DNA of 60,707 nucleotides, the filler included, from Hausera hauseri (Eukaryota): NCBI GenBank assembly GCA_046269625.1. It is 11 parts of 11 records of this genome, joined end to end, with 100 filler letters (N's around TTAATTAATTAA, not from the genome) between each part and the next. Parts side by side here need not be neighbours in the genome. Positions count along the whole stretch, not along the records: positions 10,510 to 16,271 come from JBJURY010192749.1; 10 more parts are not named here. One strand, 5' to 3'. Numbering within the stretch: the stretch's first letter is position 1; each line of letters begins with the position of its first letter. Shown piece by piece: positions 10,510 to 29,667 of the stretch. The translations under genes were made by a program, and so were the position numbers. The notes under the pieces were generated by a model. The model did no database searches. It worked only from the letters and a program-made list of their open reading frames with translations, and was not told where the DNA came from.

Positions 10510-11150
10510 AAACATAAGTTGTTTAAAGGGCAGTTTCTTCTAATGTGCCCATGTTTTCCACAGCAAAAACAATCACCCTTAGATAGTAATTCCTCTTTCG
10601 GTGCTAGTAAGTGTTTCACGCGGCAGTAGAGCTTACTGGCTTTATGATACGCAGAGTGCATTGGAGCCTGTCTTCTCCTATCTGCGATCAAACTGTAATG
10701 TGGTTTCTGGTCCTGGGCAATGTTGTTCATCGACCTTGTTTCAAACCTTTTTTTTTGAATATTCCCTTTCACTGTTGTGTATGAACGGTCTTCTATCATA
10801 TTCTTTTAGTTTCACGTATGCTGTCTTTCCGAAATTTTGGTTGGGAGTCTTTACCGCATCCCGGAAGGATTTCTTCACTGTAGCAACTTCTCTTTACTCT
10901 TCTACGGTTTGGCTGGCCTCCAAAATTTTAGCCTCCTCCTTCATCTCTTCTACTGTCATTTTTGGTTTGAAAACAAGCAGCTGTCCTAGCATTTTTGAAC
11001 TAATTCCTTTTCTAAGAACTTCATGAACGAATTCTTCTTTGTTCCACGCGAAAATTTTATCGACTGCTTGACGCACCCTGATCTCAAATGTAGAAAATTT
11101 TTTCCTTCTTTTTGACACATTGGCCAATTCGACTACCTCATTGAAGGATT
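10510..11150 (-). mobile_element. gag: LTR-retrotransposon gag remnant with CCHC zinc knuckle
   Basis: CFCCGKHGHIRRNC in ORF 10458-10799; capsid-like ORF 10894-11127 upstream; broken frame. Confidence 0.65.
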
Positions 11151-11199
11151 CATCTTCCCCATAAATTATTATTTATTTTTGAACCATCACTATTCTGAA

Positions 11200-12200
11200 G
11201 ATACAACTTCAACATATCAAGTTTGTGACGAATAATTTCCTTTGTTAACGTTTTAAATTCTTTTGTAGATGGTCTTCTGAATTCAAAATTACTCTTTATT
11301 TTCATTTTTTTTGTTCATTTACAGTTGATGGAAAATCAAGTCATACGGTCCAGAATGTTGAAATCTAGAAAATATGAAGATTGTTGTATCATGTGACAAT
11401 GCTTTTCGTTCAGGAAATTACGTATGTGAGCTGATACGTGAGGAAGTGTATTGTGCATGAGCAGACACTTTTACCATGACACACTCCGCCTATTTTGAAT
11501 TAGCTTATAGGAATTAAATTTACGCATGACTTCTGCAGGAAATTACTGCACAATTCTGAATTAGTAATTTCACCACGATCTAACAATTTGGAATGGTATA
11601 ATCCACAAAAATTAACGGCCACCAAGTAGTGAAACTTCCTATAGACTACTTTCCTCCTAGGAATATCTGCGCTATCTCCATACGAAGGAACCCAAGGTTT
11701 GCGAATTACATAATTTTCTAGTGGACGTGAAAAGAAAGCTGTTTAATCGGTAACAACTAGATAATGAACATTATTTCTGTTCGTTTCGCAAACTTCAGGC
11801 AAATCCTGTGAATAAGTAACTCTTTGTATCTTTTGTTCTTCATTGATTACACGTGGAATCCAATTACGCGAAACGTACTTCCATCTTAAAGCTTCTTTTA
11901 TTATTTTTAAAACCACTGAATGAGACAATCCAAATTGGTCCGACGTTCACCGTTTAAGTTTACCGTTATTTGAATGCTCCTGTTCAATTTTAGAGCAATA
12001 TAACATTCTTTCTTTATTTTTCTGCTTAATACTTCCAGACTTACGTGTGAAATCTTCTCGAGTTTTGTTTTCAAATTCTTTGTCTATTTGTTAGACTCTT
12101 CGCAACCCTATCAGGTTTTCTCCCCGCACCGTTAACAAAATATTATGGGTCGCACTTCTTTTCTAGTTGTCAATGTAAGCTAATTATTTTTCAAAAACAT
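11200..12200 (-). mobile_element. Heavily decayed mariner-type transposase
   Basis: VSRNWIPRVINEEQKIQRV matches the mariner WVP linker; degenerate YSPDLN-like motif near 11350-11390; boundaries approximate. Confidence 0.6.
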
Positions 12201-12239
12201 GGTGGAAGTGAGGTAGAAATCTCATGTTGAAGTATAATT

Positions 12240-12745
12240 GTAAAATGAGTTAACGAGATTGCGTGTTACGCAACATAACGTTGGAAATCACTTTTATACG
12301 GATCAATTTTTACAGATCTGGAATTATATATTCATTGAGTAATGGCTCAAAAATATATATGTACTTGGGACACTTACCGTTTGAAATAGTTTTTAAACGG
12401 GAAATTAACGTGCACGTAGCTGGAGGAATCACAAGACAGACCGATAATGCCAGACTGATACAAAGTATTACAAGACATTATAATGGCAGCTAACCGAATG
12501 AAAAATTTCGAGGTGGAGAAGAGAGGGAAAGGAAATTTAGAAATTGGACAGAAAGTGTTCGTGAAAGTAGACTTTCAGAAAAGAAGAAAAGTGCTTATCA
12601 GTTCGAAAGACCATATGAAATAATTCGACAAATTTTGCCGAATCAGTGGGAGTTGAAAAATATGGGAGATGGTAGAATGATTCGAAGAAGAGTGAAATGG
12701 TTGAAAAGAGTAAACAAGGATCATAAAGGAGAAAGGAAAATGATG
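12240..12745 (+). mobile_element. Ty3/Gypsy integrase C-terminal remnant with PPT
   Basis: LGHLPFEIVFKREI and FERPYEIIRQILPNQWELK (GPY/F-like), then purine tract aaaggagaaaggaaaa and TG. Confidence 0.45.
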
Positions 12746-13760
12746 ACTCAAAAATGAAGAATAATTAAAATTATTTATTTTTAATAAACGGAAAATCTGT
12801 TTCAAATTTGTAATTAATAAATTATATTTTAAACTTTAACTCTAATTCAACTTCGACGAAATGTGCGATAAAATGTCAAGTGATACTTCGTATTTCGATT
12901 CGACGATTTTGCCGAGCAAACCTCTCGAAACTGATTGTTTGAGTATGGAATCTCAAATATTGTTATTGAACAACTTCGGTGAGCTTAATTTAATGGTATA
13001 TTTGTTTTATAGTTGCTTGAGGTAAAATCAGAAGTCATTCAGAGTTTCATAAAACTATACCACGTAGGAATAATTATAAGACAGGACATTCAAGTTGTTG
13101 CGCTTGTAAAAAAGAAAACGTTTCTTAACGCATCTAGGAAATTTGATTTTCAATAATTTAAAGTCTTCACATAGAGCGCAGTAGATAATTCGGGATCAGA
13201 AATCCATACGTTGAACGAGAGTAGAATCCCAAAGGAAGATAGATGCCATCATATACTGTGTCACTGAAATCAGTATTTATGCAGGAATTAAATTTGTTAG
13301 TGTGAAAATCATTTTACACTTTTATACTGCACTAGTTGAGAGATGCGTTGAATGAAATAAAATATTTTCTAACAATTGAAAAAATTCTGTCAAAACAGTT
13401 CTCAAAGTTTCATCTAACAATTTTAAAAATCACCTTTCAACAAATCAAAAATCGAAAAATCTTTAAGCGTAGACAGATAGGAAACCACATGGCGAATCAG
13501 AATATAACGTCAGATATTGGAATACAAGTTCACGAGTCGAGTATTCGAAAACTGGAATATTCGAAAATCGATAAATTTAAAGATTAAAATCGATAAATAT
13601 AATGCAATATTATAGTAACGTTTCAACATAGTAAATTTAATAATTAATTGGTTTTAAAAATAATAAACAAATGTGAAATACATAATATGAATTTAAATAA
13701 TGGACTATACTAATAATCTTGTATCTGATATAAATAAAATTTCATTGGATCATGTGAGTC

Positions 13761-13943
13761 ATGAAGAAGATGAATATACACAAGTTCATTCAGAAGACCA
13801 TACAGAAAATTTACACATGGATACAACAAATAAAACAAACTGATAAAATTGATAAAGAATGTGAAAATTGCAAATACAATGAGTGTGATTGTGACGAAAA
13901 TGAGTTCAGTATTATCGAAGAACAAAGTTGCTGTGATGAATAA
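13761..13943 (+). CDS. Small Cys/acidic-rich hypothetical protein, convergent with the TBP-like gene
   Basis: 60-aa ATG ORF with CENC/CDC/CC clusters; AATAAA overlaps the stop. Confidence 0.3.
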   Translation: MKKMNIHKFIQKTIQKIYTWIQQIKQTDKIDKECENCKYNECDCDENEFSIIEEQSCCDE

Positions 13944-13988
13944 AAATGACAGTTAACGATTGTTAGTGTTGTACTGTTAATAAAGTTG

Positions 13989-15742
13989 TTACATATATAG
14001 ATTTTGTTTTTGAATAAAAAACAAGTCGATAACAATATATTGTCTAAAACAACTAACAAAATTACTATAATTCAAATCTTTCAAACCGGTTATAACAATT
14101 TTCCCGTGTAAAAACATTTACACATTGAGGATTATAAAAAGTTAGTCTAACTGCAGGAAACAATTCTGGTTCATAAAGACTTGGATTATTCCTCACCAAT
14201 CCATTGAGATCTATAGGCTGACCAAAATCACATGTCACGGTGATAGATTGTATGATCACAATGGAAATACTTAGTAGTCCAATAAATACTGTTAAACATA
14301 AATTATAAAATATTGACAATGAAGAGATTTTTCATTAATTTTGTTTGTTTATTGTCTATGGGTTAATAAAGTAATTTACAATATTTCATTCAAAATGGCC
14401 ACCTTTAGCCTTTACACAAGCTTTAAGACGGTTTGGCCAATCATCAATGGCAGCACGCACCTCATATGGGAAAATTCTCTATTGCTCGAGTAATTAATCG
14501 CTTTAAAGATTCAATGTTCGGGTGTTGTTTAGAGCAAGTCATGCCCTCTAAAACGAATCATAACTTGTAGTCCAAAGAGTTAAGATCCTGACTTCCAGTT
14601 GGTCACTCTTCCGGAGAAATGAAATCCGGTTTTCCAACCATGTTTGGGTGGTCTTAGCTTCATGAGCAAACGCAGAATCCTGCTGAAAGGTCCATGGCTG
14701 ATTTTTAAACATAATCGTGTTGAGTGGCTTCACAACACCTTCCAAAATGTCTTTATGGTAAACAGATGATGTTTTGACACATCTTTCACAAAAATGGATG
14801 GCAGTGGTCCCATCATAGCCCACTCCCCACTAAACCATCACTGAAGCAGGATGGTGACCACGCTGAACTCTGGGAAGAAATCCCACAGCTTCTTTTGAAG
14901 ATCTAGCATATACTCTATCATTTTGTTTCTTGTAAGATTCTTCAACGGAATTTTTCGATGCTTGACACGCACGTACCGCGCCAACAGCTGCTTTGATTTC
15001 ATCTTTCTCTTCTGCTTCAAATCCTCCGTAAGTTGTCCGATGTGCTTTTTATAAGCACCTTACCCCAAATCTTGTTTTATTATGCGAAACATGGAATTAC
15101 GCTCTAAATTCATTTCACGGCGCATGATTTTCTGTTTTCGTAGAGGATTTCTATCGATTCGGGCCATTACAGGTTTAATGGCTTGTGGTGTTCTTACAGG
15201 GCATGGTCTTCCCGATCTTTGAGGGTCAATCACATCACCAATATCCTCAAACAATTTCACAGCTCGGTACACAAACGTTCGACTAATTCCAAGTGACTTT
15301 AAAGATTACGGATTAAACATTAAAGCGTCTTAAGGATTACCGATTTTTCAATTTTGCATTTAAAGAGCACGATTACGGCAATACGATTTTCTTTGTCTCC
15401 CCATTCCATTTTTAAAAATATAATTTAAACAAAGCTATTGTATACAATAACGCTAGACTAACTACTTGACACATCAAATGACAAAACATGGATACATTCA
15501 ATATTTCATTATTCATGAATGCGTTCAAACATGCAACAATATTTATGGAACTACTGTGTATTATAGGGTAAACTGTATGAATCAATAGGTTGTTTGCAGG
15601 CCATTATTCGACATTTCCCACAGGAAAAGAATACAATTGTATATTCCAGATATCGTAAAAGACATTGTTTAGGCTTACTGCTGAATTGAAACCTACCTAA
15701 CGAATCTGTAGTGAAGCCCTTCTAATTAACATTGCTCAACAT
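13989..15742 (-). pseudogene. Minimal intronless TATA-binding-protein-like gene (~155 aa) interrupted by a maT transposon
   Basis: Removing 14270-15558 plus one TA joins 15742-15561 to 14267-13989 in frame: MLSNVN*KG...YTIVFFSCGKCRIMACK (repeat 1) ...IQSITVTCDFGQPIDLNGL..YEPELFPAVRL..CVNVF[frameshift]GKIVITGLK (repeat 2). Confidence 0.75.
14270..15558 (-). mobile_element. Full-length decayed Tc1/mariner element, maT/DD37D (Bmmar1-like); transposase 14386-15409
   Basis: TA on both sides (14268-14269, 15559-15560); imperfect TIRs cttagtagtccaataaatactgtt / aacaatatttatggaactactgtg; transposase begins MEWGDKENRIAVI, contains FQQDSA, ends WPNRLKACVKAKGGHFE*; several frameshifts. Confidence 0.88.
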
Positions 15743-16371
15743 TTCTAAAAATGACAAGTTTAATCGGATCTTTTATCATCAAGGTAGAGGTTGGGAAAGT
15801 AGACTAACACAACATGAATTTTTGCAAATTACAAACTTTTTAAAATGATATTTTCATATAAATTCATTCTATTCAAATCCATGAATATTGCCAATTATCA
15901 ACATTCAACATGATATTTAAACAAATAATTTTAAATTGCATACATGTAATAAAACTAAATTTCAATGAAACGAAACCTACAACATTTATTAACGCATATG
16001 AAATACTAATATGTACAATAAATATTATTCTGGGTCATATGAAACATGACACGGTAGAATCTACGAATCAGCATCATAGTTACAATCTCTAACAACATGA
16101 GCAGTTTCATTGCACTTGTAAAACTTTCTTTCATTTGAATCACCATTCGAGTATTTGTCAGAAACATGGTCAGAAACTTTTTTGAAAATGCTCACTGTAA
16201 GTAGATCGTGTATCTACCATTCCGACATCAACGTCACACGAGTATTGTAAAGTAGAATTTTCCATAAGGTTNNNNNNNNNNNNNNNNNNNNNNNNNNNNN
16301 NNNNNNNNNNNNNNNTTAATTAATTAANNNNNNNNNNNNNNNNNNNNNNNNNNNNNNNNNNNNNNNNNNNN

Positions 16372-20674: not shown

Positions 20675-23600
20675 AGCTTCCAATTATCATACTCCCAACT
20701 TTTATTTCGCCCCATCCACTTTCGTTTATCATCGTTACATGAAAAAGCGATTTTCGCACTAGTTATTGTGTACAGCTGGTGTTCAATTGATCGGATGATC
20801 GTTTCAGACACAACAGCCACTGATTGTCCTCCTTCTGCCGCGTCTTCATCTATACGGTGATAATCACTGTGGTCGGTTTCCATCTGCCTCAGCTGGACTC
20901 CTTTTGCCTGCATTTTTGGCCCATAGTCCGTCAGAAGACTGTAGCAATTTGGGCGTAGGAATATCCATTCCCGATATTGAACCCTGCCTTTACTTTCATC
21001 CTTGAAACAGCCGATTTTGTTGGTGATCACGCTGCTGTACAACGGATGATCCGGTGGGTAGGTGGACGTGTCCAGTAATCCATCTGACTGCATTTACTGC
21101 AGTAGCTGTTCGCGATTGACTTTTTTCAGCCGCAGGAAAAAACTGGCTGTGTCACCGGCAATTATACTAATATCATAGTCGTCAAACATTTACCTGTAAC
21201 GTTTCAAGTCGCAATACTGTAGCTCATGCATTCTCAACTTATTCAGGTCCAATACCACTTGTCCGATGTAATTTGGCCGGTCCAGAATGACTTCTTCTCG
21301 GTTTAACAGCACCGCAGCCAATCCATCAGCAATGTGCATTGACCGCCGAAACTGTGTTTTGCTGATATATGTAACCAGCCACTTTTCCACGTTACATACG
21401 AGCATATTAAGCCGCTTTTTCAGATTCGCCACTATTTTTCCGTACAGGGAATTGATTTTCAGCTTGTAGTAGTCCTTTTCGAACTTTGTACAACTTGCGG
21501 CTCATTTCTCCGAATTTCCATCTATGTACGCCTTGAATATTGGAGCCTGAGCAAATAGGACTGCACGATGCAGCTGTGTAACGCGTACACCGAGCTGCAT
21601 GTAGAACTCTAACAGACGCCATTTGACCACTTAAATCAGCTTCGGTTCATGCGTCATGAGCAGTTCCTTCACTTTTGAGCCTGGCGGACATTAGTTAAAT
21701 GGTGCGACAGGTAAATCGTCCAAAACGTAATGCAGTTCATTTTGTATCTTGAAATCAACCTCCATCAGGTATCCGACTAAGCCTGCCATGTCTGCTCGTG
21801 GTAGTTTGACCATTACGTTGTACAAATCCTGTCTGTCGACAACCCATTCGAGTGAACCGTACGGCAAGGGTTGCGAAAGCGCCCAACCATAAAGTTTATT
21901 AATATCAATATACAGCAGTGATGTGATATCGGTAGCACTGACCTAATGCTTGTTGACAAATGTCATGCCGCCGCGAATACCAACATCAAACAGACGGTAA
22001 ATTTCTGGGTCTTGCAGCAGGTCAATATCTCGATCCATTGACATTAGAGCTGAGGCTCAACTCATTCCCGGTATGGAATAAAAGTTGAGTAGCTCCAGCC
22101 TGTCTTCAGCCAACGCTTTTGCTCGGAACGCTTAAAACACGTCGGCTAATAAGTGCACGTCCAGTTTAGGATAGTGCAGTATGTAATCCAACATATTTCT
22201 ACAGCTGAGTTCTGTCCAACATCTCTGTGCTTTCCGGTATTCATCCTCTTTGATATCTGTCCATCGCGGAGGTAATTCCTCTGTTGTCCGAAGTCGCTCC
22301 TATTATGTTGCAAAGTCATATGGGAATATGCCTTGCTGCGCGCGATGTGTTCGGGAACTGCGTCAGTGCTATTGGCACATTTGGCAAGGCATTTACCAGT
22401 TTTGGCAATGATTGCCAAATTGCAGCTAATCAAGGAAGCATACCTGGAACCGGTTTATACGAGCAGACAGTGACAGGTATTTCTCCATCGTAGTCGGAAT
22501 TATGGATAGTTCCCAGTGCACAAATCCGTTTGTTGCCCATTTCAAAATATGGTGACAATCATAACCCCTGAAGTTATGAAATACCACCGGTAAGAATGGT
22601 CGCACACGCCTTGCCAAATTGCATGAATTACATGCTGTTCCGAAATATCGACTAGTAAAATGATCGTGATCCGGTACGAGCCGTTCCTATGCGTCAGAGG
22701 GTAATATTTTGTTGCACCGGTAACATTCATTTGTGACTGCAAACGTCAGGCGTTCATCTTCATCTGTCCACATCAAGGGTTTATTGCTATTTATACTATA
22801 CCAGGGTGCGATTTCAGGTTCCACTATGGTTTGCAACTGTTGCAAGAAATCGCGTACACAATTTCATCCGTGGAAAACAATATTGAGGTTGACCTGCGGC
22901 TTTTATTGGGACAATCAACTTACCGACGGCGATTGGAACGCTTTTGGTCATATATGTTGGGCCGTGGTAAGATAGCTTCGATATTGGCATATACTACATA
23001 TGCCGGACTGTCTGTTTTTGACCAATCAGTGAACCTGAGTTCCCGTTTGACGAGCATGACATACATTGTGGTTCCTGACAAATTTTGTCTGCACAGTCAC
23101 ATGTTTCTCCCATGTTGTTTCCGACCTGAATCCATGAAGACATGCAGGACATCATTTACACTGTATCCGTTTTTGGAGGAATTGGTCATGCTCCATGTTC
23201 AGTAGTCTGTCCAGATTTGTCACAGAAACGTAATTGTACTTTTCTTTTTGTTCCAGTAGCAACAAATTTACTGAGCGGCCATTTGGGTTCCGACTACGAT
23301 AGATTATATCCACATGAGGATTTTTGTAAATTTCTTTATCCGCCTGTATTTCTACGATTGTGTTGTACCGGAACACGTTGATTGCCAGTGTCGGATTACG
23401 TCGTTCAAAAGCCGGAATGGATTTCAATTTCATCGTCATCCAGCTTTCATCGAAATCCAATTCGAAAAAATATTTCTGATACTGTTTTGAACGATTTGCA
23501 TGATATCTGTTTACTTCGCTGTACTTCAATATAGCCAGAATACTGTACAGAAAACAGTAATCGTCGTCAGTATTTTGTACATTCACTACCGCCCGAGACT

Positions 23601-23862
23601 GCTTTAGAGCTGCAGGTGTCGGTATGAATGATCGTCCAGACAAATATATGTCACTCGACTTTGTTATGATAAAGCCGAGGGTGACAATTCGTATAATTCG
23701 CCATCTACTACCCTTTTCCGTGTAGTTGGCGATTTTCTCCCAGAGCTTTTCGCCTACGTCGGAAATAAAATCATTGGCATATGGTACAGCTCGATATGAC
23801 AAGTACCATTGTTTCCTGTCATCTTCAACGTTTTCAAATTCTACAAGTACATAATATTGCAC
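20675..23862 (-). pseudogene. polB: Polinton/Maverick (adintovirus-like) protein-primed DNA polymerase B, fragmented
   Basis: Ordered motifs: GRSFIPTPAAL..VVNVQNTDDDYCFLYSILA (Polinton PolB N-terminus), DHDH EndoVII-like insert, FHNFRGYD (ExoII), LLYIDINKLYGWALSQPLP (motif A), KLKINSLYGK (B), IAGDTASF (C), IGCFKDE..IFLRPNCYS; many stops and frameshifts. Confidence 0.92.
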
Positions 23863-23933
23863 TTTACAGTGTTAGTGTTGGAATTTCTCCACTTCTGATT
23901 TCAACCGGTTGCGCACATTTTGCGGAACATGTC

Positions 23934-24533
23934 TCAACTGCGTTGTTGTTGTTTCGCCGACAGGTTCGCTTTTATGTCCACGTATGATCTGTTCAGATCG
24001 TACTTGACATTAATGTCGGGTTTCTGTTGTATCTGTTCCTCTTGCTGTTGTTGCTCCTGCTGATCCTGCTGTTGGTCTTGCTGCTCGGTACTGGTTCTGA
24101 TGTATTTGTCCAGACTTATTGATGCCTTACGTTTTCTCCTGGTTGTTGTTGTTGTTGTTGAAGGGATTCTGCTGATTTTTGTTGATTCCATTAATATTTG
24201 TTTTTTCGACCACCGCTGAAACTGGTTTAAGTGGTCCTGGTGCTCATTGTAAAATTGTTTGTAGTTGATTTCATCAACTATTGAACAAGCGGGACAAATA
24301 TAGGCCCGTTTACCGTGCACCGTTGTGGCGCCGTAGTATTGCTCTATTGCACTATAGCAACCATCAACGTCGTGCACTGTACTTGTGCAGTACCGTGGGT
24401 ACATAGGGCAATGCACTAGCATCATCTTCGACCGTGTAAACGGTCCGAGATGATGCTTGTGCATCTCATAAAATTCGGGGTACGGACATTGTGCTGAAAT
24501 ATTACACGTCGGACACAGATGTGTCCATTCCAA
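23934..24533 (-). CDS. Polinton ORF upstream of pPolB with two CxxC...HxxH modules, basic RRKRK patch and Q-rich tract
   Basis: CPTC..EFYEMHKHHL and CPAC..QFYNEHQDHL; same strand as and directly 5' of polB; possibly the PolB N-terminus. Confidence 0.55.
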   Translation of the reverse strand: MEWTHLCPTCNISAQCPYPEFYEMHKHHLGPFTRSKMMLVHCPMYPRYCTSTVHDVDGCYSAIEQYYGATTVHGKRAYICPACSIVDEINYKQFYNEHQDHLNQFQRWSKKQILMESTKISRIPSTTTTTTRRKRKASISLDKYIRTSTEQQDQQQDQQEQQQQEEQIQQKPDINVKYDLNRSYVDIKANLSAKQQQRS

Positions 24534-24715
24534 CGTTGTAATATTTCACCATCTAATGATGGCACTGTTCTGCCTTCTCGTGTATGCGAGAGACGTAGTA
24601 TATGGGATATTGTGANNNNNNNNNNNNNNNNNNNNNNNNNNNNNNNNNNNNNNNNNNNNTTAATTAATTAANNNNNNNNNNNNNNNNNNNNNNNNNNNNN
24701 NNNNNNNNNNNNNNN

Positions 24716-25950
24716 CACTGCTGTATATTGATATTAATAACCTGTACGGCTGGGCGCTTTCGCAACCCTTGCCGTACGGTTCATTCGAATGGATTGTCGA
24801 CAGACAATATCTGGACGACATAATAGTCAACCTACCACGAGCAGACATGGCAGGCTCAGTCGGATACCTGATGGAGGTCGATCTCTTACCAGATGAGCTG
24901 CATGACGTTTTGGACGATTTACCGGTCGCACCATTTGACCAATGTCCGCCAGGCCCAAAAGTGAAGAAACGGCTCATGACGCGTGAACCGAAGCTGAATT
25001 ACGTGATCATTTGGCGTCTGATACAGTTCTACATGCGACTCGGTGTACGCGTCACACAGCTGCATCGTGTAATCCGATTTGCTCAGGCTCCTATACTCAA
25101 GGCGTACATAGATGGAAATTCGGAGAAACGAACTGCAGCTTGTACAAAGTTCGCAAAGGACTATTACGAGCTGAAAAACAATTCTCTGTATAAAAAACAG
25201 TGGAGAATCTTAAAAGCGACTCAATGTACGCCTATGAAACAGCGAAACGAGGTTGGCCACGTACACGAGTAATGCGCAATTTCGGCGGCCAATGCACATT
25301 GCCGATGGGCTGGTTGCGATGCTGTTAAACCGGAAAGAAGTCATTCTAGACCGGCCAAGTTACATCGGACAAGTGGTATTGGACTTGAGCAAGTTGCGAA
25401 TGTACGAGCTGCAGTATCGCAAATTGGTACGTTACCGGCAAATGTTCGACGGCTGTGAGATCAGTATCGTTGCCGGTGACACAGACAGTTTTTGCCTTGA
25501 GCTAAAAAACGTCAATCGCAACCAACTGCTCCGACAAATGATGGCAGATGGACTACTGGACATGTCCAATTATCCACCGGATCATCCGTTGTACAGCAGC
25601 GGGATTATCAATAAAATCGGATGCTTCAAGGATGAAAGTGAAGGCAGGGTTCAGTATCGGGAATGGATATTCCTACATCCAAAGTGCCAATCTTCTGATG
25701 GACTGTGGACCGAAAATGCTCGCCGAAGGAGTCCAGCTGAGATAGACGGAAATCGACCACGGTGATTATCGACGTATCTATGAAGGAGGACAATCAAAGG
25801 CTGTTGTGTCACAAACGATCATCCGATCGATTGAGCACAAGCTGTATACTGTGACCAATACAAAAGTCGCTTTATCATGCAATAATGATAAGCGTAAGTG
25901 GGTGGGGCGAGAAGAGTTAAGCGTAAGGACATTGGCGTATGGAATAAAAC
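24716..25950 (+). pseudogene. polB: Second Polinton pPolB copy (C-terminal half), fragmented
   Basis: LLYIDINNLYGWALSQPLPYG, ELKNNSLY, IVAGDTDSF, IGCFKDE, LSCNNDKR; clearly homologous to 20675-21920 but with different lesions. Confidence 0.92.
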
Positions 25951-26172
25951 ACGCACGCGCATGCAGAATTCGGTGCAGACAGACAAATCAAATTACTGTG
26001 ACAATTCATTGTGATCTGTTTGTTTTGTATAAAGAATGTATATTGTTCGTTGTTTTGGCCTTTTTGTTTAATTGTCATTTAATTTATCTGTTTGACTTAA
26101 TGTGAGAGCAAATATAAAAAGACGACAAAATCAATAAAATTTATTAATCATAAGCTAAAATCAAAAATAAAG

Positions 26173-26616
26173 TCAAATCAGCGTAAACTTTCCCAGCTTC
26201 CATATTGATGATTTAACGCCGTGCAGATCCTTGTATCCTTTCAACTTCAATGTTAGATTACCTTTAGCTCCTTCCGGTGGTAAAACTGTTGCTGCTGCTG
26301 CTGCTGTTTCTCCGCCATGTGAACTGACAATTTTCGCCATGTCCTTTGAGAAAAATCGGCAATGTATCTAGAATATCGTTACTCAACGCCAAATCACTGT
26401 CAACTTTTCTAATTGTCTTCCATCGTATCCAAATCATCGTCGCTGATCTTTTTCATCAATAGACCATATTTCACCGGTTTAATGTTGACAGTTTGCGTCA
26501 ATGGCAATTGAATAGAGTTGCGCAGATAATGTAAGTTGTATCCATTATATAACCGGGAATTTCTGAGCGAATATTCGCTGAACCGTGGCTTTTTTGAGAC
26601 ACTGTAACCTGCTCAT
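26173..26616 (-). pseudogene. Decayed Polinton accessory gene, possibly a ssDNA-binding protein
   Basis: Frameshifted reading ..NIKPVKYGLLMKKISDDDLDTME..PPEGAKGNLTLKLKGYKDLHGVKSSIWKLGKFTLI*; TATAAA upstream; function is a guess from the beta-strand pattern. Confidence 0.3.
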
Positions 26617-26790
26617 TTGTTTTCCAAAGACAATGTTTAAAAACAAACGTGAAATAAAATTGCATTTCTATTTATATCAAAGGTTTGTTTTCATTGTAAA
26701 CAATAGAAATTTACTTTGAGTATTGTCTCATATAACAGTGATACAAATTAACTACACGTCATTGAAGCCCATGTTCCGTTATTGAAGAAG

Positions 26791-27264
26791 TCAATCGTAA
26801 TAAACGTGTACAAGTTCCATTATAGCACATTAACATACCGGACACTGGTGGGTTACTTTGGTGGAACACATTTGACAAACAACGAGATGGCGGCACATTA
26901 TGAATACCGTATCCACTTTTCTTTGTTTAAATACTACACATAAAGTGACAGTCTCGTACTTTGTCCATTATTTTCTCTTTCAAGTTCGTTAATTCACTGC
27001 GTACCTTTTGAACAGTATCAAGGTAATTTGTATCGTATAATCGGTGAATGTACATTTGATTTAACACACACAATAATTAGATTTTCTATAGAGCTACAAT
27101 CTGTTCAGGTCATCAATGCTATTGACGCTAAATTTTCTTTAAATACAAAATAACCTGTTGCTCTCGCAACCAGCTCACTATTAATGTACTTGTCACCGTA
27201 CCAAATCTGAAATTAATAATCCATCAAAATTTTGCAATTCCTTCAGTTGATTAACTATTTCCAT
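26791..27264 (-). pseudogene. RING-HC (IAP-type) E3 ligase-like gene, decayed; RING at 26791-26940
   Basis: Manual translation LCVVFKQRKVDTVFIMCRHLVVCQMCSTKVTHQCPVC*CAIMELVHVYYD* fits the C-terminal IAP/MGRN-type C3HC4 pattern with one C->F and one nonsense change; absent from the ORF track. Confidence 0.78.
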
Positions 27265-27370
27265 GATAATTAATATTATTTCCTACCCGTATTTATAGTT
27301 TATGAATTATTAAACTGACCAATACGACGTACCATATTTAGGGAAAGAAAAAAAACAGAAATACGTTTAT

Positions 27371-27865
27371 TTATTTGCATGAAATATAGTCAATGCAAAG
27401 CCGTAGACATTTTTTGTAAGCACAATACGGTCCATGATCACTATTCGGACATTGGATGTTGTTAGGTACCACCGCCAGCAAGCTGTTTGATGCTGTTGTT
27501 GAATACGTCGTCATTCTCAGCTCGGAAAACTGTGAATGGAGTTGTGCAAACTTTTGTCCGCCAATTTGATCTTTAATGTAAAATATTGTATTTTTAATGT
27601 CAAAACGATCACAAATATCTCTCATAATACACGGCGCAAAAAACGTTGAATTGCCTTCATACCAATAAAGTCCATGACAATGTCGAAAGAGTAATCCATT
27701 TGTAATTTTCGCTTTATCCGTCAGGTCTTTTCACACAATACAGGGCTTGAATATGTACACAAGCGGTTCGAAAATGTTACCACGGTCAATACTGCATAAT
27801 TCCTTTATTATGTACCGGGCATTATCATCTTGGAAAGCTTCAATATTTATAAATCTTGTCGCCAT
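27371..27865 (-). pseudogene. DEDDh/Maelstrom-like nuclease-fold protein (164 aa, one in-frame TGA)
   Basis: MATRFINIEAF..YIIKELC..YIFKPCIV*KDL..TNGLLFRHCHGLYWYEG...QCPNSDHGPYCAYKKC: (D/N)xE strand plus E..C..H..C arrangement like the MAEL ECHC zinc site. Confidence 0.55.
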
Positions 27866-27916
27866 TACTTATCTGGTACAAAATTATTTTTTGTTTTTAA
27901 CAGTCAAAACAGCTAA

Positions 27917-28450
27917 CTATTTATTATTATCACAATCACCAAAGCCAAATTCTTTGCGTTCATTTCGTATCGATTCATTGACGCAAAACAATCCCCATTG
28001 TTCCGATGACATTACATTGAATTCCGCCTCTTCACTGCGAAGAAAAACGATTTGTGTGATTGCACTGCCTTTCGAAAAAGCATACGGTTCTCCGGATTGG
28101 TTTTCCAGCAACACCTTAATTTCACCACAAAAGTCTGAATCAATGACACCGCCCACAACCGTCAGTGGGAGCTTTCCCAGTCCACTTTTGGATAACAGTT
28201 GACCGTAGTAACCCGGTGGAGTGGCCAATCGAATCCCAGTCGTTATGCATTTGATTGTGGAGTCAAAAATTGTCGTATTGACATTGGAAAACACATCGTA
28301 GCCTGCACTGTTTGCTGTAACACGTCTCGGTACAAAAGAATTTTCGTATGTTAACATAATCTTTACATCATTCATCATCATTATTCTTATGCCTATATTA
28401 AAATTACACGTCTCATCAGCATCAATACATCCTAAAAAAATGCGATTCAA
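27917..28450 (-). CDS. dut: Trimeric dUTPase
   Basis: All five motifs: SAGYDV, LSKSGL, GGVIDSDFCGEI, ITQIV, ERKEFGFG; ORF open; true start probably the MMM near 28378. Confidence 0.93.
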   Translation of the reverse strand: MNRIFLGCIDADETCNFNIGIRIMMMNDVKIMLTYENSFVPRRVTANSAGYDVFSNVNTTIFDSTIKCITTGIRLATPPGYYGQLLSKSGLGKLPLTVVGGVIDSDFCGEIKVLLENQSGEPYAFSKGSAITQIVFLRSEEAEFNVMSSEQWGLFCVNESIRNERKEFGFGDCDNNK

Positions 28451-28764
28451 ACGTAGTCAGCCGTACTTTATTGCTTTGCTCAAGGTACCTACGAGACAAG
28501 CGAAACATGATGCGATCATTCCCACAATTTGTAGTAGACGATTTGATGGAAATTTTATACAATATCATTGTGGGTCACGTTGACATTGGTAGTGAAAAGC
28601 GGAATTTACTAAAGTATAGAACACGACTCATTGGCCTTGCCAACGCTCGTAGTAAACGACTGAAACGAGAGGTCATGTACGAGCAAGATGGCGGATTCCT
28701 TGGTACAATTCTACCGATTGTCACGTCATTACTGGGTGTACTCATTGCTTCTGCAGCAGCATAG
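28440..28764 (+). pseudogene. Polinton/adintovirus pX-like small core protein (one frameshift near the 5' end)
   Basis: Basic segment followed by EQDGGFLGTILPIVTSLLG, resembling the GG|F cleavage site and hydrophobic tail of adenoviral pX; directly upstream of the integrase. Confidence 0.7.
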
Positions 28765-28906
28765 CATAAACAAAGACGGTAAGTATATAGTGATTCGGCG
28801 ATATAGGTGCATGGTTTTCATCATTTTGCCCCAGTTTACCTAATCTTTCATTTACGTTTCGTTCAAATTGTTGTAATTTTAACAAAAAGGACAAACGACA
28901 GCAACG

Positions 28907-29667
28907 ATGGGCGACGTGTCGTTCGACCCGCGTCATCCCGTTGGCTATACAGGTGTCGACAGATAGGGAAAGACTGTCAAAAAGACTCGGAAACAGACCC
29001 AGTGCTGGCTCGGGAAACAGTTAGCATACAGTCTAAACAAACCGATAAAGCGGTTTCTAACTCGTACATACCGTTCTGCCGGTGTAAATAATGTATGGCA
29101 AATGTATCTGATAAAAATTATTCCGTACGCCAGCATCAACGATGGGTATCGGTACGTGCTAACATGCGGTGATGTGTTAAGTCCTTTTGCACAAGCAATT
29201 GCCGTGAAATCTAAATCCAGTAGAGATTGCCGACGCTGTTCAGACAGTGATGCAACAACAGCCGAAGCATTTACAAACGGATTTAGGTAAGTAATTCTAC
29301 AACGCCCACGTTGCAGCGGTCTTGAAACGGTTCGGCGTAAACCACTGCTCGACGTTTTCCCAATACAAGGCTGCACTCGTTGAACGATTTAATCGAACAT
29401 TGCGCGGTAGCCTAAACAAATTCTTTACGAAGCAAGGCAACAAACGCTGGATAGATGTACTACCGGACAGCATTCATGCATACAATCATTCGACACATCG
29501 TGGTATCAATGGATTACGGCCGGTTGACGTACTCGATGATTTTAACATGCGGCTTTATAAAAACAACAACCAACTACAAGGTCGCCAAGCAATTAAACGT
29601 CGCCCAAAATATAAAATCGGTGCTTACGTACGTATTTCGAAAATAAGTACGACGCCATTCATTAAGA
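28907..29667 (+). pseudogene. int: Polinton retroviral-like (rve) integrase, fragmented and truncated by contig end
   Basis: FDPRHPVGYTG..WL..AYSLNKP..VWQM..NDGYRYVLTC.DVLS..; KAALVERFNRTLR..KRWIDVLP..AYNHSTHRGI; KYKIGAYVRISK. Confidence 0.88.

Follow-up and report, generated by a model that had tools for sequence, protein, structure and literature searches.

The DNA analysed here (the window, 60,707 nt with filler) comes from the genome assembly of Hausera hauseri, and the entire contig G000:C192749 is contained in it at positions 10510-16271. On the minus strand of this contig, two halves of a TBP-like gene were detected on either side of a 1,289-bp insert (Table 1). The C-terminal half scored 34 bits with the Pfam TBP family (PF00352; E 2.6e-8, cut-off 22.9), the N-terminal half by itself had no Pfam match, and the uninterrupted natural copies L007 and L009 scored 48.8 and 35 bits against the same cut-off, which agrees with the TBP identity assigned in the preliminary description. 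The description had also held that removal of the insert and one TA rejoins the gene, and this was borne out by sister copies that hold a single TA at the site and by L007 and L009, which cross it in one open frame. The rejoined product had been put at ~155 aa, which is longer than the natural family members (144-152 aa).

Table 1. Positions of the features in the window
Feature	Position	Strand	Evidence or remark
TBP-like gene, 5' half (repeat 1 and linker)	15560-15742	-	62% identity to P0001 residues 1-61
TBP-like gene, 3' half (repeat 2, YEPELFP stirrup)	14015-14269	-	Pfam TBP E 2.6e-8; tblastn of P0001 in three frames
maT transposon (DD37D, Tc1/mariner), decayed, flanked by a TA target duplication and bearing imperfect TIRs of 24 nt	14270-15558	-	Empty-site copies, TIR alignment, family search
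Polinton packaging ATPase remnant, ~80 bp, internal	15753-15834	+	DNA match to ATPase of L013, L038, L051, L053
Segment common to the deletion subfamily	15835-16174		Zinc-knuckle-like fragment on the minus strand at ~16082-16123
Non-coding element part common to sister copies	13449-13699		Sisters extend further left, window copy does not
Convergent small acidic CxxC-containing ORF, ~80 aa	13700-13942	+	Frameshifted near 13831; tblastn
Decayed gag-like ORF with zinc knuckle	10510-11172	-	
Weak Tf2-1 SH3 match	12494-12757	+	E 0.026
Further Polinton fragment	20675-24615		PolB
Further Polinton fragment	24716-29667		PolB, DEDD-like, PZ, INT

The one nonsense codon described earlier was located in the 5' half (TAG at 15724-15722), but the single frameshift was not upheld, since frameshifting indels lie at two places (~14102-14113 and ~14051). 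The window copy is dead, a fossil, because it carries one stop and frameshifts in two places and has lost its promoter. No YATAAAC box (see below) was present in the window stretch. The locus had been called a hidden gene; however, nothing in it is hidden or functional, because the copy belongs to a deletion subfamily, has decayed, and lacks a promoter. In short, a transposon has split this copy, now dead, of a gene that Polinton/Maverick elements carry for a TBP-fold protein of ~145 aa (mini-TBP hereafter).

The insert was correctly named a maT transposon, because it has imperfect 24-nt terminal inverted repeats (19/24 matching), relatives in the genome (~40 at 75-91% identity, among 55 candidates), and the DD37D spacing, which was found in three of eight maT loci, those with a readable motif (L187-L189). 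A TA lies on each side of it in the window, and L002, L005, L007, and L008 align to both flanks of 14269/15559 with a single TA. The transposase in the window insert itself is decayed, and its HTH matches were weak and below the Pfam cut-off.

Upstream of the TBP-like gene, the ATPase remnant is fused directly to the TBP start region, so that the TBP promoter and the neighbouring gene are gone; the 5' end of the ATPase is absent as well. This junction was spanned by 14 of the 40 scored contigs, and the sister copies of the window element showed 79-90% identity. The order of events appears to have been deletion, amplification, and then maT insertion and decay. The convergent tiny ORF noted in the preliminary description proved to be real, being conserved at 30 other loci of the genome in both subfamilies (32 listed by tblastn, two of them duplicates) and frameshifted in the window. 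Its assignment as an Oncoid was considered and dropped, as it has no clear LxCxE. Left of the Polinton fragment, the gag-like ORF and the Tf2-1 match are the remains of an LTR retroelement.

Association with Polinton elements

A genome search with L007 gave 5,006 candidates, and all of the 150 that were scored matched with at least 57% identity, indicating at least 150 copies. Other copies adjoin a Pox_A32-type ATPase, pPolB with an endonuclease VII domain, a protease-like ORF, and an integrase. A protein-primed PolB was linked to the TBP gene in L048 (Pfam DNA_pol_B_2 and Endonuclease_7), L182, L219, and L087; An rve integrase, an A32-type ATPase, and an adenain-type protease were linked to it as well, with Pfam rve, Pox_A32, and Peptidase_C5 matched on L078, L051, and L074 and further linkage on the contigs L044, L053, and L168 of the assembly. 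The 8.9-kb L219 carries PolB, DEDD-like, TBP, ATPase, PZ, and INT genes on a single contig, and L168 and L224 each carry TBP, ATPase, PZ, INT, putative minor capsid, pX, and putative major capsid genes, where the order of genes in Polintons is the basis for the presumptive names PZ, pX, DEDD-like, and capsid. The putative major and minor capsid ORFs have the expected size and order and gave no match in Pfam, PDB, or NCBIfam. The contigs examined from the assembly were at most 11.5 kb, short of the element ends. Thus, inspection of the neighbours of other copies revealed pPolB, ATPase, integrase, and putative capsid genes on the same contigs.

The metagenome sample consisted of 80 loci, namely the best 26 (L065-L090), 50 of cellular type, and four set aside as neither class. 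A core Polinton gene was found in 10 of the 26 (7 of 10 among loci of at least 3 kb) and in none of the 50 cellular-type loci. A conserved beta-rich gene often adjoins the TBP gene (L048:2477-2986, L067:659-1012, L087:8270-8839). It is suspected to encode an OB-fold single-strand binding protein; its single-sequence model had a pLDDT of 48, and Pfam and PDB profile searches returned only weak, scattered matches. In the assembly, the Polinton load is very heavy (an initial search for the putative major capsid gave 10,594 candidates, and 101 of 101 scored matched), and other copies of the lineage at 24716-29667 have a mini-TBP in divergent orientation to the ATPase.

Homology searches yielded 26 homologues with identities of 32-71%, of which the closest at full length measured 144-152 aa. 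With a profile, 59 clusters were recovered at E<=1e-30; a threshold of 1e-10 gave 648, but other TBPs are then included. In a scan of viral contigs with the TBP alignment, only two full-length TBPs were found. The ~145-aa Polinton TBP family is widespread and barely described. A second class of divergent TBP is full-length (168-176 aa; L098:2213-2728, P0176-P0295) and keeps helices H1 and H2 and F99. Polinton genes adjoin it in both loci with context (L098 and L110), and among its 154 homologues some are annotated as 'TATA-box-binding protein-like 1' in a bivalve genome. Additional very divergent TBP-like ORFs were observed at L155:497-1204, L153, and L154, with no Polinton neighbour detected.

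A tree was constructed from 57 of 99 aligned sequences (subsampled; 164 columns), with groups named by eye beforehand. The copies from the assembly nested in the mini clade (100/99), which lay within a clade with intermediate forms (100/97), sister to the full-length class (99/97), a union of long and reduced forms that long-branch attraction could inflate. The TBPs of the assembly, which has separate cellular TBP genes with 65-78% identity to fungal-type TBP, grouped with cellular TBP in this tree, rooted on one long archaeal branch. The paralogue L148/L149 also grouped there, apart from the mini family, in a tree from which verified TRF2 is absent; a homologue search with L149, sought as a source of TRF2, was empty. 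It might be argued that the gene is a host TBP/TRF paralogue or a processed pseudogene caught in a repeat, since the assembly has several cellular TBP-type genes and fragments and the tree is without a bona fide TRF2. This is very improbable in view of the high copy number, the Polinton neighbours, the nesting of the copies in a metagenomic clade, and the rejection of a tree in which the assembly's mini and host sequences were forced into one clade (AU p 1.4e-68). Within the limits of a tree lacking verified TRF2, the mini copies stand apart from the cellular TBPs of the assembly and do not represent a single-copy host gene. Together, the Polinton linkage, the copy number, and the phylogeny uphold the earlier suggestion of a TBP mimic from a Polinton-like element, not host TBP.

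Among 39 copies from the assembly (21 without an internal stop), dN/dS fell from 0.55 at dS<0.2 to 0.14 at dS>1 in 712 of 741 pairs, the 29 saturated pairs being dropped; the copies were top search matches, so that dN is biased downward. This pattern fits purifying selection between subfamilies, in replicating elements, and decay after insertion. The term host refers here to the assembly, which may mix DNA of more than one organism, because it holds two quite different Brf1-like genes (L198 and L200) and more than one TBP type (L152 and L145). A search for TFIIB in the assembly led to two best-scoring contigs that, when examined, resembled Brf1.

Predicted fold and DNA-facing residues

The predicted model of L007 had a pLDDT of 91.7 and contained no helix of four or more residues in repeat 1. 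It matched TBP in Foldseek (E 2.5e-9, TM 0.73), and VIA-align superposed it on human TBP with a Z of 13.7 (rmsd 2.4 A, 144 residues; the first match that is not a TBP had Z 6.8) and on yeast TBP 61-233 with a Z of 13.4 (rmsd 2.5). The two pseudo-repeats are predicted to form a saddle in which repeat 1 has lost helices H1 and H2, and the columns of these helices (85-94 and 135-142) were gapped in 91-100% of 35 mini sequences. Residues are given in yeast TBP numbering, which we set from N69. The two-repeat saddle is shared with cellular TBP (PF00352; human 1cdw/7egb, yeast 1ytb), but mini-TBP has ~145 residues instead of ~180, with ~23% identity, lacks two of the four convex helices (H1, H2, H1', and H2'), and is mobile and multicopy.

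As in cellular TBP, N69, F116, E186, E188, F190, P191, and F207 are kept in the 35 mini sequences at 94-100% (E186 at 97%; E188, F116, F190, and F207 at 100%), including the E186/E188 stirrup. Cellular TBP has four intercalating Phe, whereas mini-TBP has three, F99 having been replaced by Pro in 97% of the sequences in a register that could be one residue off. On the DNA face, V71>N, V122>R, T124>M, N159>S, I194>R, V203>C, and L205>N are fixed at 94-100%, all except V71>N at 97-100%, so that residues 71, 122, 194, and 205 are polar in mini-TBP.

The altered-specificity mutant TBPm3 carries changes at 194, 203, and 205 (PMC1636458); helix H2 has been cross-linked to TFIIA and NC2 (PMC2577341); Mot1 grips the convex side (PMC4565979); and the stirrup carries the main TFIIB contacts (PMC10005294). 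Mini-TBP is therefore predicted to keep the TFIIB surface, lose the regulator surfaces, and read a different sequence, because the stirrup is retained, H1 and H2 are deleted, and the DNA-face substitutions are fixed.

The YATAAAC box upstream of Polinton genes

The 90 nt upstream of automatically assigned starts were surveyed for a shared motif; a gene was kept only if an in-frame ATG lay close to its expected start, and L076 was excluded because it nearly duplicates L074. In the metagenome loci, YATAAAC was present upstream of the ATPase (6/6), DEDD-like (7/7), PZ (3/3), PLA2 (3/3), and putative major capsid protein (MCP; 3/4) genes, that is, of 22 of the 23 genes in these five classes, at a distance of 32-75 nt. 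The box preceded only 1 of 21 TBP genes, and its frequency was 2/4 for INT, 1/2 for the protease, 1/5 for the putative minor capsid, 0/2 for pX, and 1/7 for the gene neighbouring TBP. In the assembly itself, it was found ahead of 12/16 putative MCP and 2/4 PZ genes and of none of the pX (11), putative minor capsid (4), INT (4), and protease (3) genes, and ATPases located by Walker A carried it in five of six cases, in both lineages.

The box, in its fuller form YATAAAC(A/G), is strand-specific; YATAAAC fell in 71 windows on the gene strand versus 4 on the opposite strand (1,211 each). The top hexamer, ATAAAC, occurred in 26 of 28 regions against a background of 5%, and the associated p of 5.5e-32 overstates the case because the gene classes were chosen after the data had been seen and the loci are related. 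A canonical TATA was found ahead of TBP genes in 9/21 metagenome and 11/30 assembly cases versus 0/23 in the five box-bearing classes, and CCAAT preceded 26 of 51 TBP genes, mostly copies from the assembly. The long-form TBP element L098 had the box in none of three genes, and this is the only such contrast. A scan of viral contigs with an alignment of the putative capsid protein, made to obtain a control, turned up no TBP-less Polinton; nor did the other Polinton lineage of the window serve, since it carries a TBP gene too.

TATAAA and CATAAA are variants of the poly(A) signal. The box could be a 3'-end signal, in which case the DNA binding of the protein would serve something else, for instance replication or packaging. 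The 72 boxes examined give some ground for this: 20 overlap an upstream stop codon, 10 others are close to a stop and lack an ATG within 120 nt, and one lies past the MCP stop of L082, where the gene run ends and no further gene follows. Another 11 have neither a stop nor an ATG. The TBP gene of the assembly also adjoins the ATPase and a possibly DNA-binding gene. Against it, 22 boxes have a downstream ATG and no stop nearby, and an ATG lies 28-60 nt downstream of 32 (6.6% at random), with the distances clustering at 32-45 nt. Moreover, the box follows none of 39 TBP gene ends, and it is found ahead of ATPases oriented divergently from the neighbouring gene (L168, L219, and L222, with one-base variants in L223-L225). 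This explanation thus seems unlikely for the box as a whole, and some copies may nonetheless have a 3'-end role. The positional pattern favours a promoter role.

The box departs from TATA mainly at base 7, whereas the best-known specificity positions (194, 203, and 205) face base pair 2. Host TBP is reported to have 27% activity on TATAAACG in a plant assay (PMC10005294). This residual activity would suit a protein that acts as a decoy or repressor, occupying TATA boxes or sequestering TFIIB and so damping host or early viral transcription, while host TBP or another factor reads the box. Retention of the TFIIB stirrup with loss of one of the four intercalating Phe and of both N-lobe helices is likewise what a dominant-negative could look like. 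However, the polar residues fixed almost without exception on the DNA face point to a new specificity, and the non-canonical box that matches it is strand-specific and absent from the promoter of the TBP gene, which leaves such a decoy with little probability.

Possible role in late transcription

Judging from the sequence patterns, the intact product is probably a one-protein late-gene switch for host Pol II, that is, the element's own promoter factor. In the proposed mechanism, host TBP would transcribe the TBP-like gene from an ordinary TATA, often with CCAAT. The product would bind YATAAAC through its rewired concave face and recruit host TFIIB and Pol II, via the retained stirrup, to the packaging-module genes. 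Without the N-lobe helices, it would escape the TFIIA, NC2, and Mot1 controls on host TBP, and the outcome would be a cascade in two steps, from early to late genes, under the control of one small protein. Of the earlier suggestion that the protein redirects or antagonises Pol II, redirection to the element's own genes is thus favoured by the box pattern, and antagonism is the rival reading discussed above.

Several findings count against such a switch. The box is rare or absent ahead of the pX, putative minor capsid, integrase, and protease genes, and it is present ahead of the DEDD-like gene, which is not obviously late. The activity of host TBP on TATAAACG and the mismatch between base 7 and the specificity positions point the same way. 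The broader proposal, that animal Polintons run an early-to-late cascade through the smallest TBP known, a ~145-aa protein that shed its N-lobe helices stepwise, reads YATAAAC, and recruits TFIIB and Pol II without any other viral factor, is tentative, and we would place it a little short of an even chance. That the helices were lost stepwise is suggested by the tree, in which the forms (long, intermediate, and mini) are nested.

The closest functional parallel is ORF24 of KSHV, the vTBP of beta/gamma-herpesviruses, which is described as reading TATTWAA on late genes through a polar face (PMC12529657). Both would be viral TBP-fold factors with a polar DNA face and a non-canonical box. ORF24 is, however, reported to be large and multidomain, to bind Pol II directly, to keep four Phe, to lack the acidic TFIIB residues, and to need five viral partners (PMC12529657), whereas mini-TBP is a stand-alone domain of 144-152 aa with three Phe and an intact stirrup. 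By analogy, mini-TBP would work like ORF24 without being a member of its family, the two being unrelated in architecture. As ORF24 acts in a six-protein complex (PMC12529657), mini-TBP might similarly read the box with the help of other element-encoded or helper-virus factors, not host TFIIB alone; the loss of the convex helices removes surfaces for host partners, and conserved genes adjoin. The acidic TFIIB-contact residues absent from ORF24 are near-invariant in mini-TBP, though, and the neighbours vary between lineages, which makes a need for such partners quite improbable.

Nucleocytoviricota encode their own RNA polymerase, and no RNA polymerase gene was seen in the Polinton elements studied here. 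Their TBP-like proteins (BFVD matches; L063 and L064) share the viral TBP fold but are longer than mini-TBP, and the two in the tree grouped with cellular TBP. TRF2/TBPL1 is a chromosomal host gene with all four helices. It is a TBP paralogue with a reduced Phe set and altered DNA recognition (PMC10005294); mini-TBP shares the reduced Phe set and is predicted to share the altered recognition. A 'TBP' label appears in the MELD virus map of Starrett et al. (2021; Fig. 5 legend, PMC8502044), where the gene occurs in elements with an adintovirus-like PolB, as here, and the label may or may not denote the mini-TBP family. In the available portion of that paper it is a legend entry only, with no analysis of the fold, distribution, or promoter of the gene. 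A literature search whose coverage stopped short of most subscription journals found no study of a Polinton TBP or the YATAAAC box and nothing on TATAAAC with Hoogsteen and TBP.

With a dedicated factor and a matching box, the control of Polinton virion genes becomes a testable question about one small protein and a 7-bp motif. TBP is among the most highly conserved proteins in eukaryotes, and the mini-TBP family also amounts to a set of natural deletions in it, showing which surfaces are dispensable once regulation by TFIIA, NC2, and Mot1 is not wanted. If the cascade reading is true, the protein and its box would form a natural orthogonal TBP-promoter pair and provide direct evidence of virus-like timing of virion genes in Polintons.

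A divergent mini-TBP fragment was also observed at L181:2830-4500 (G000:C290725), where the gene immediately downstream has motifs resembling those of HUH proteins and superfamily-3 helicases, of the kind present in CRESS-type Rep. The neighbours of this fragment differ from the usual Polinton set.
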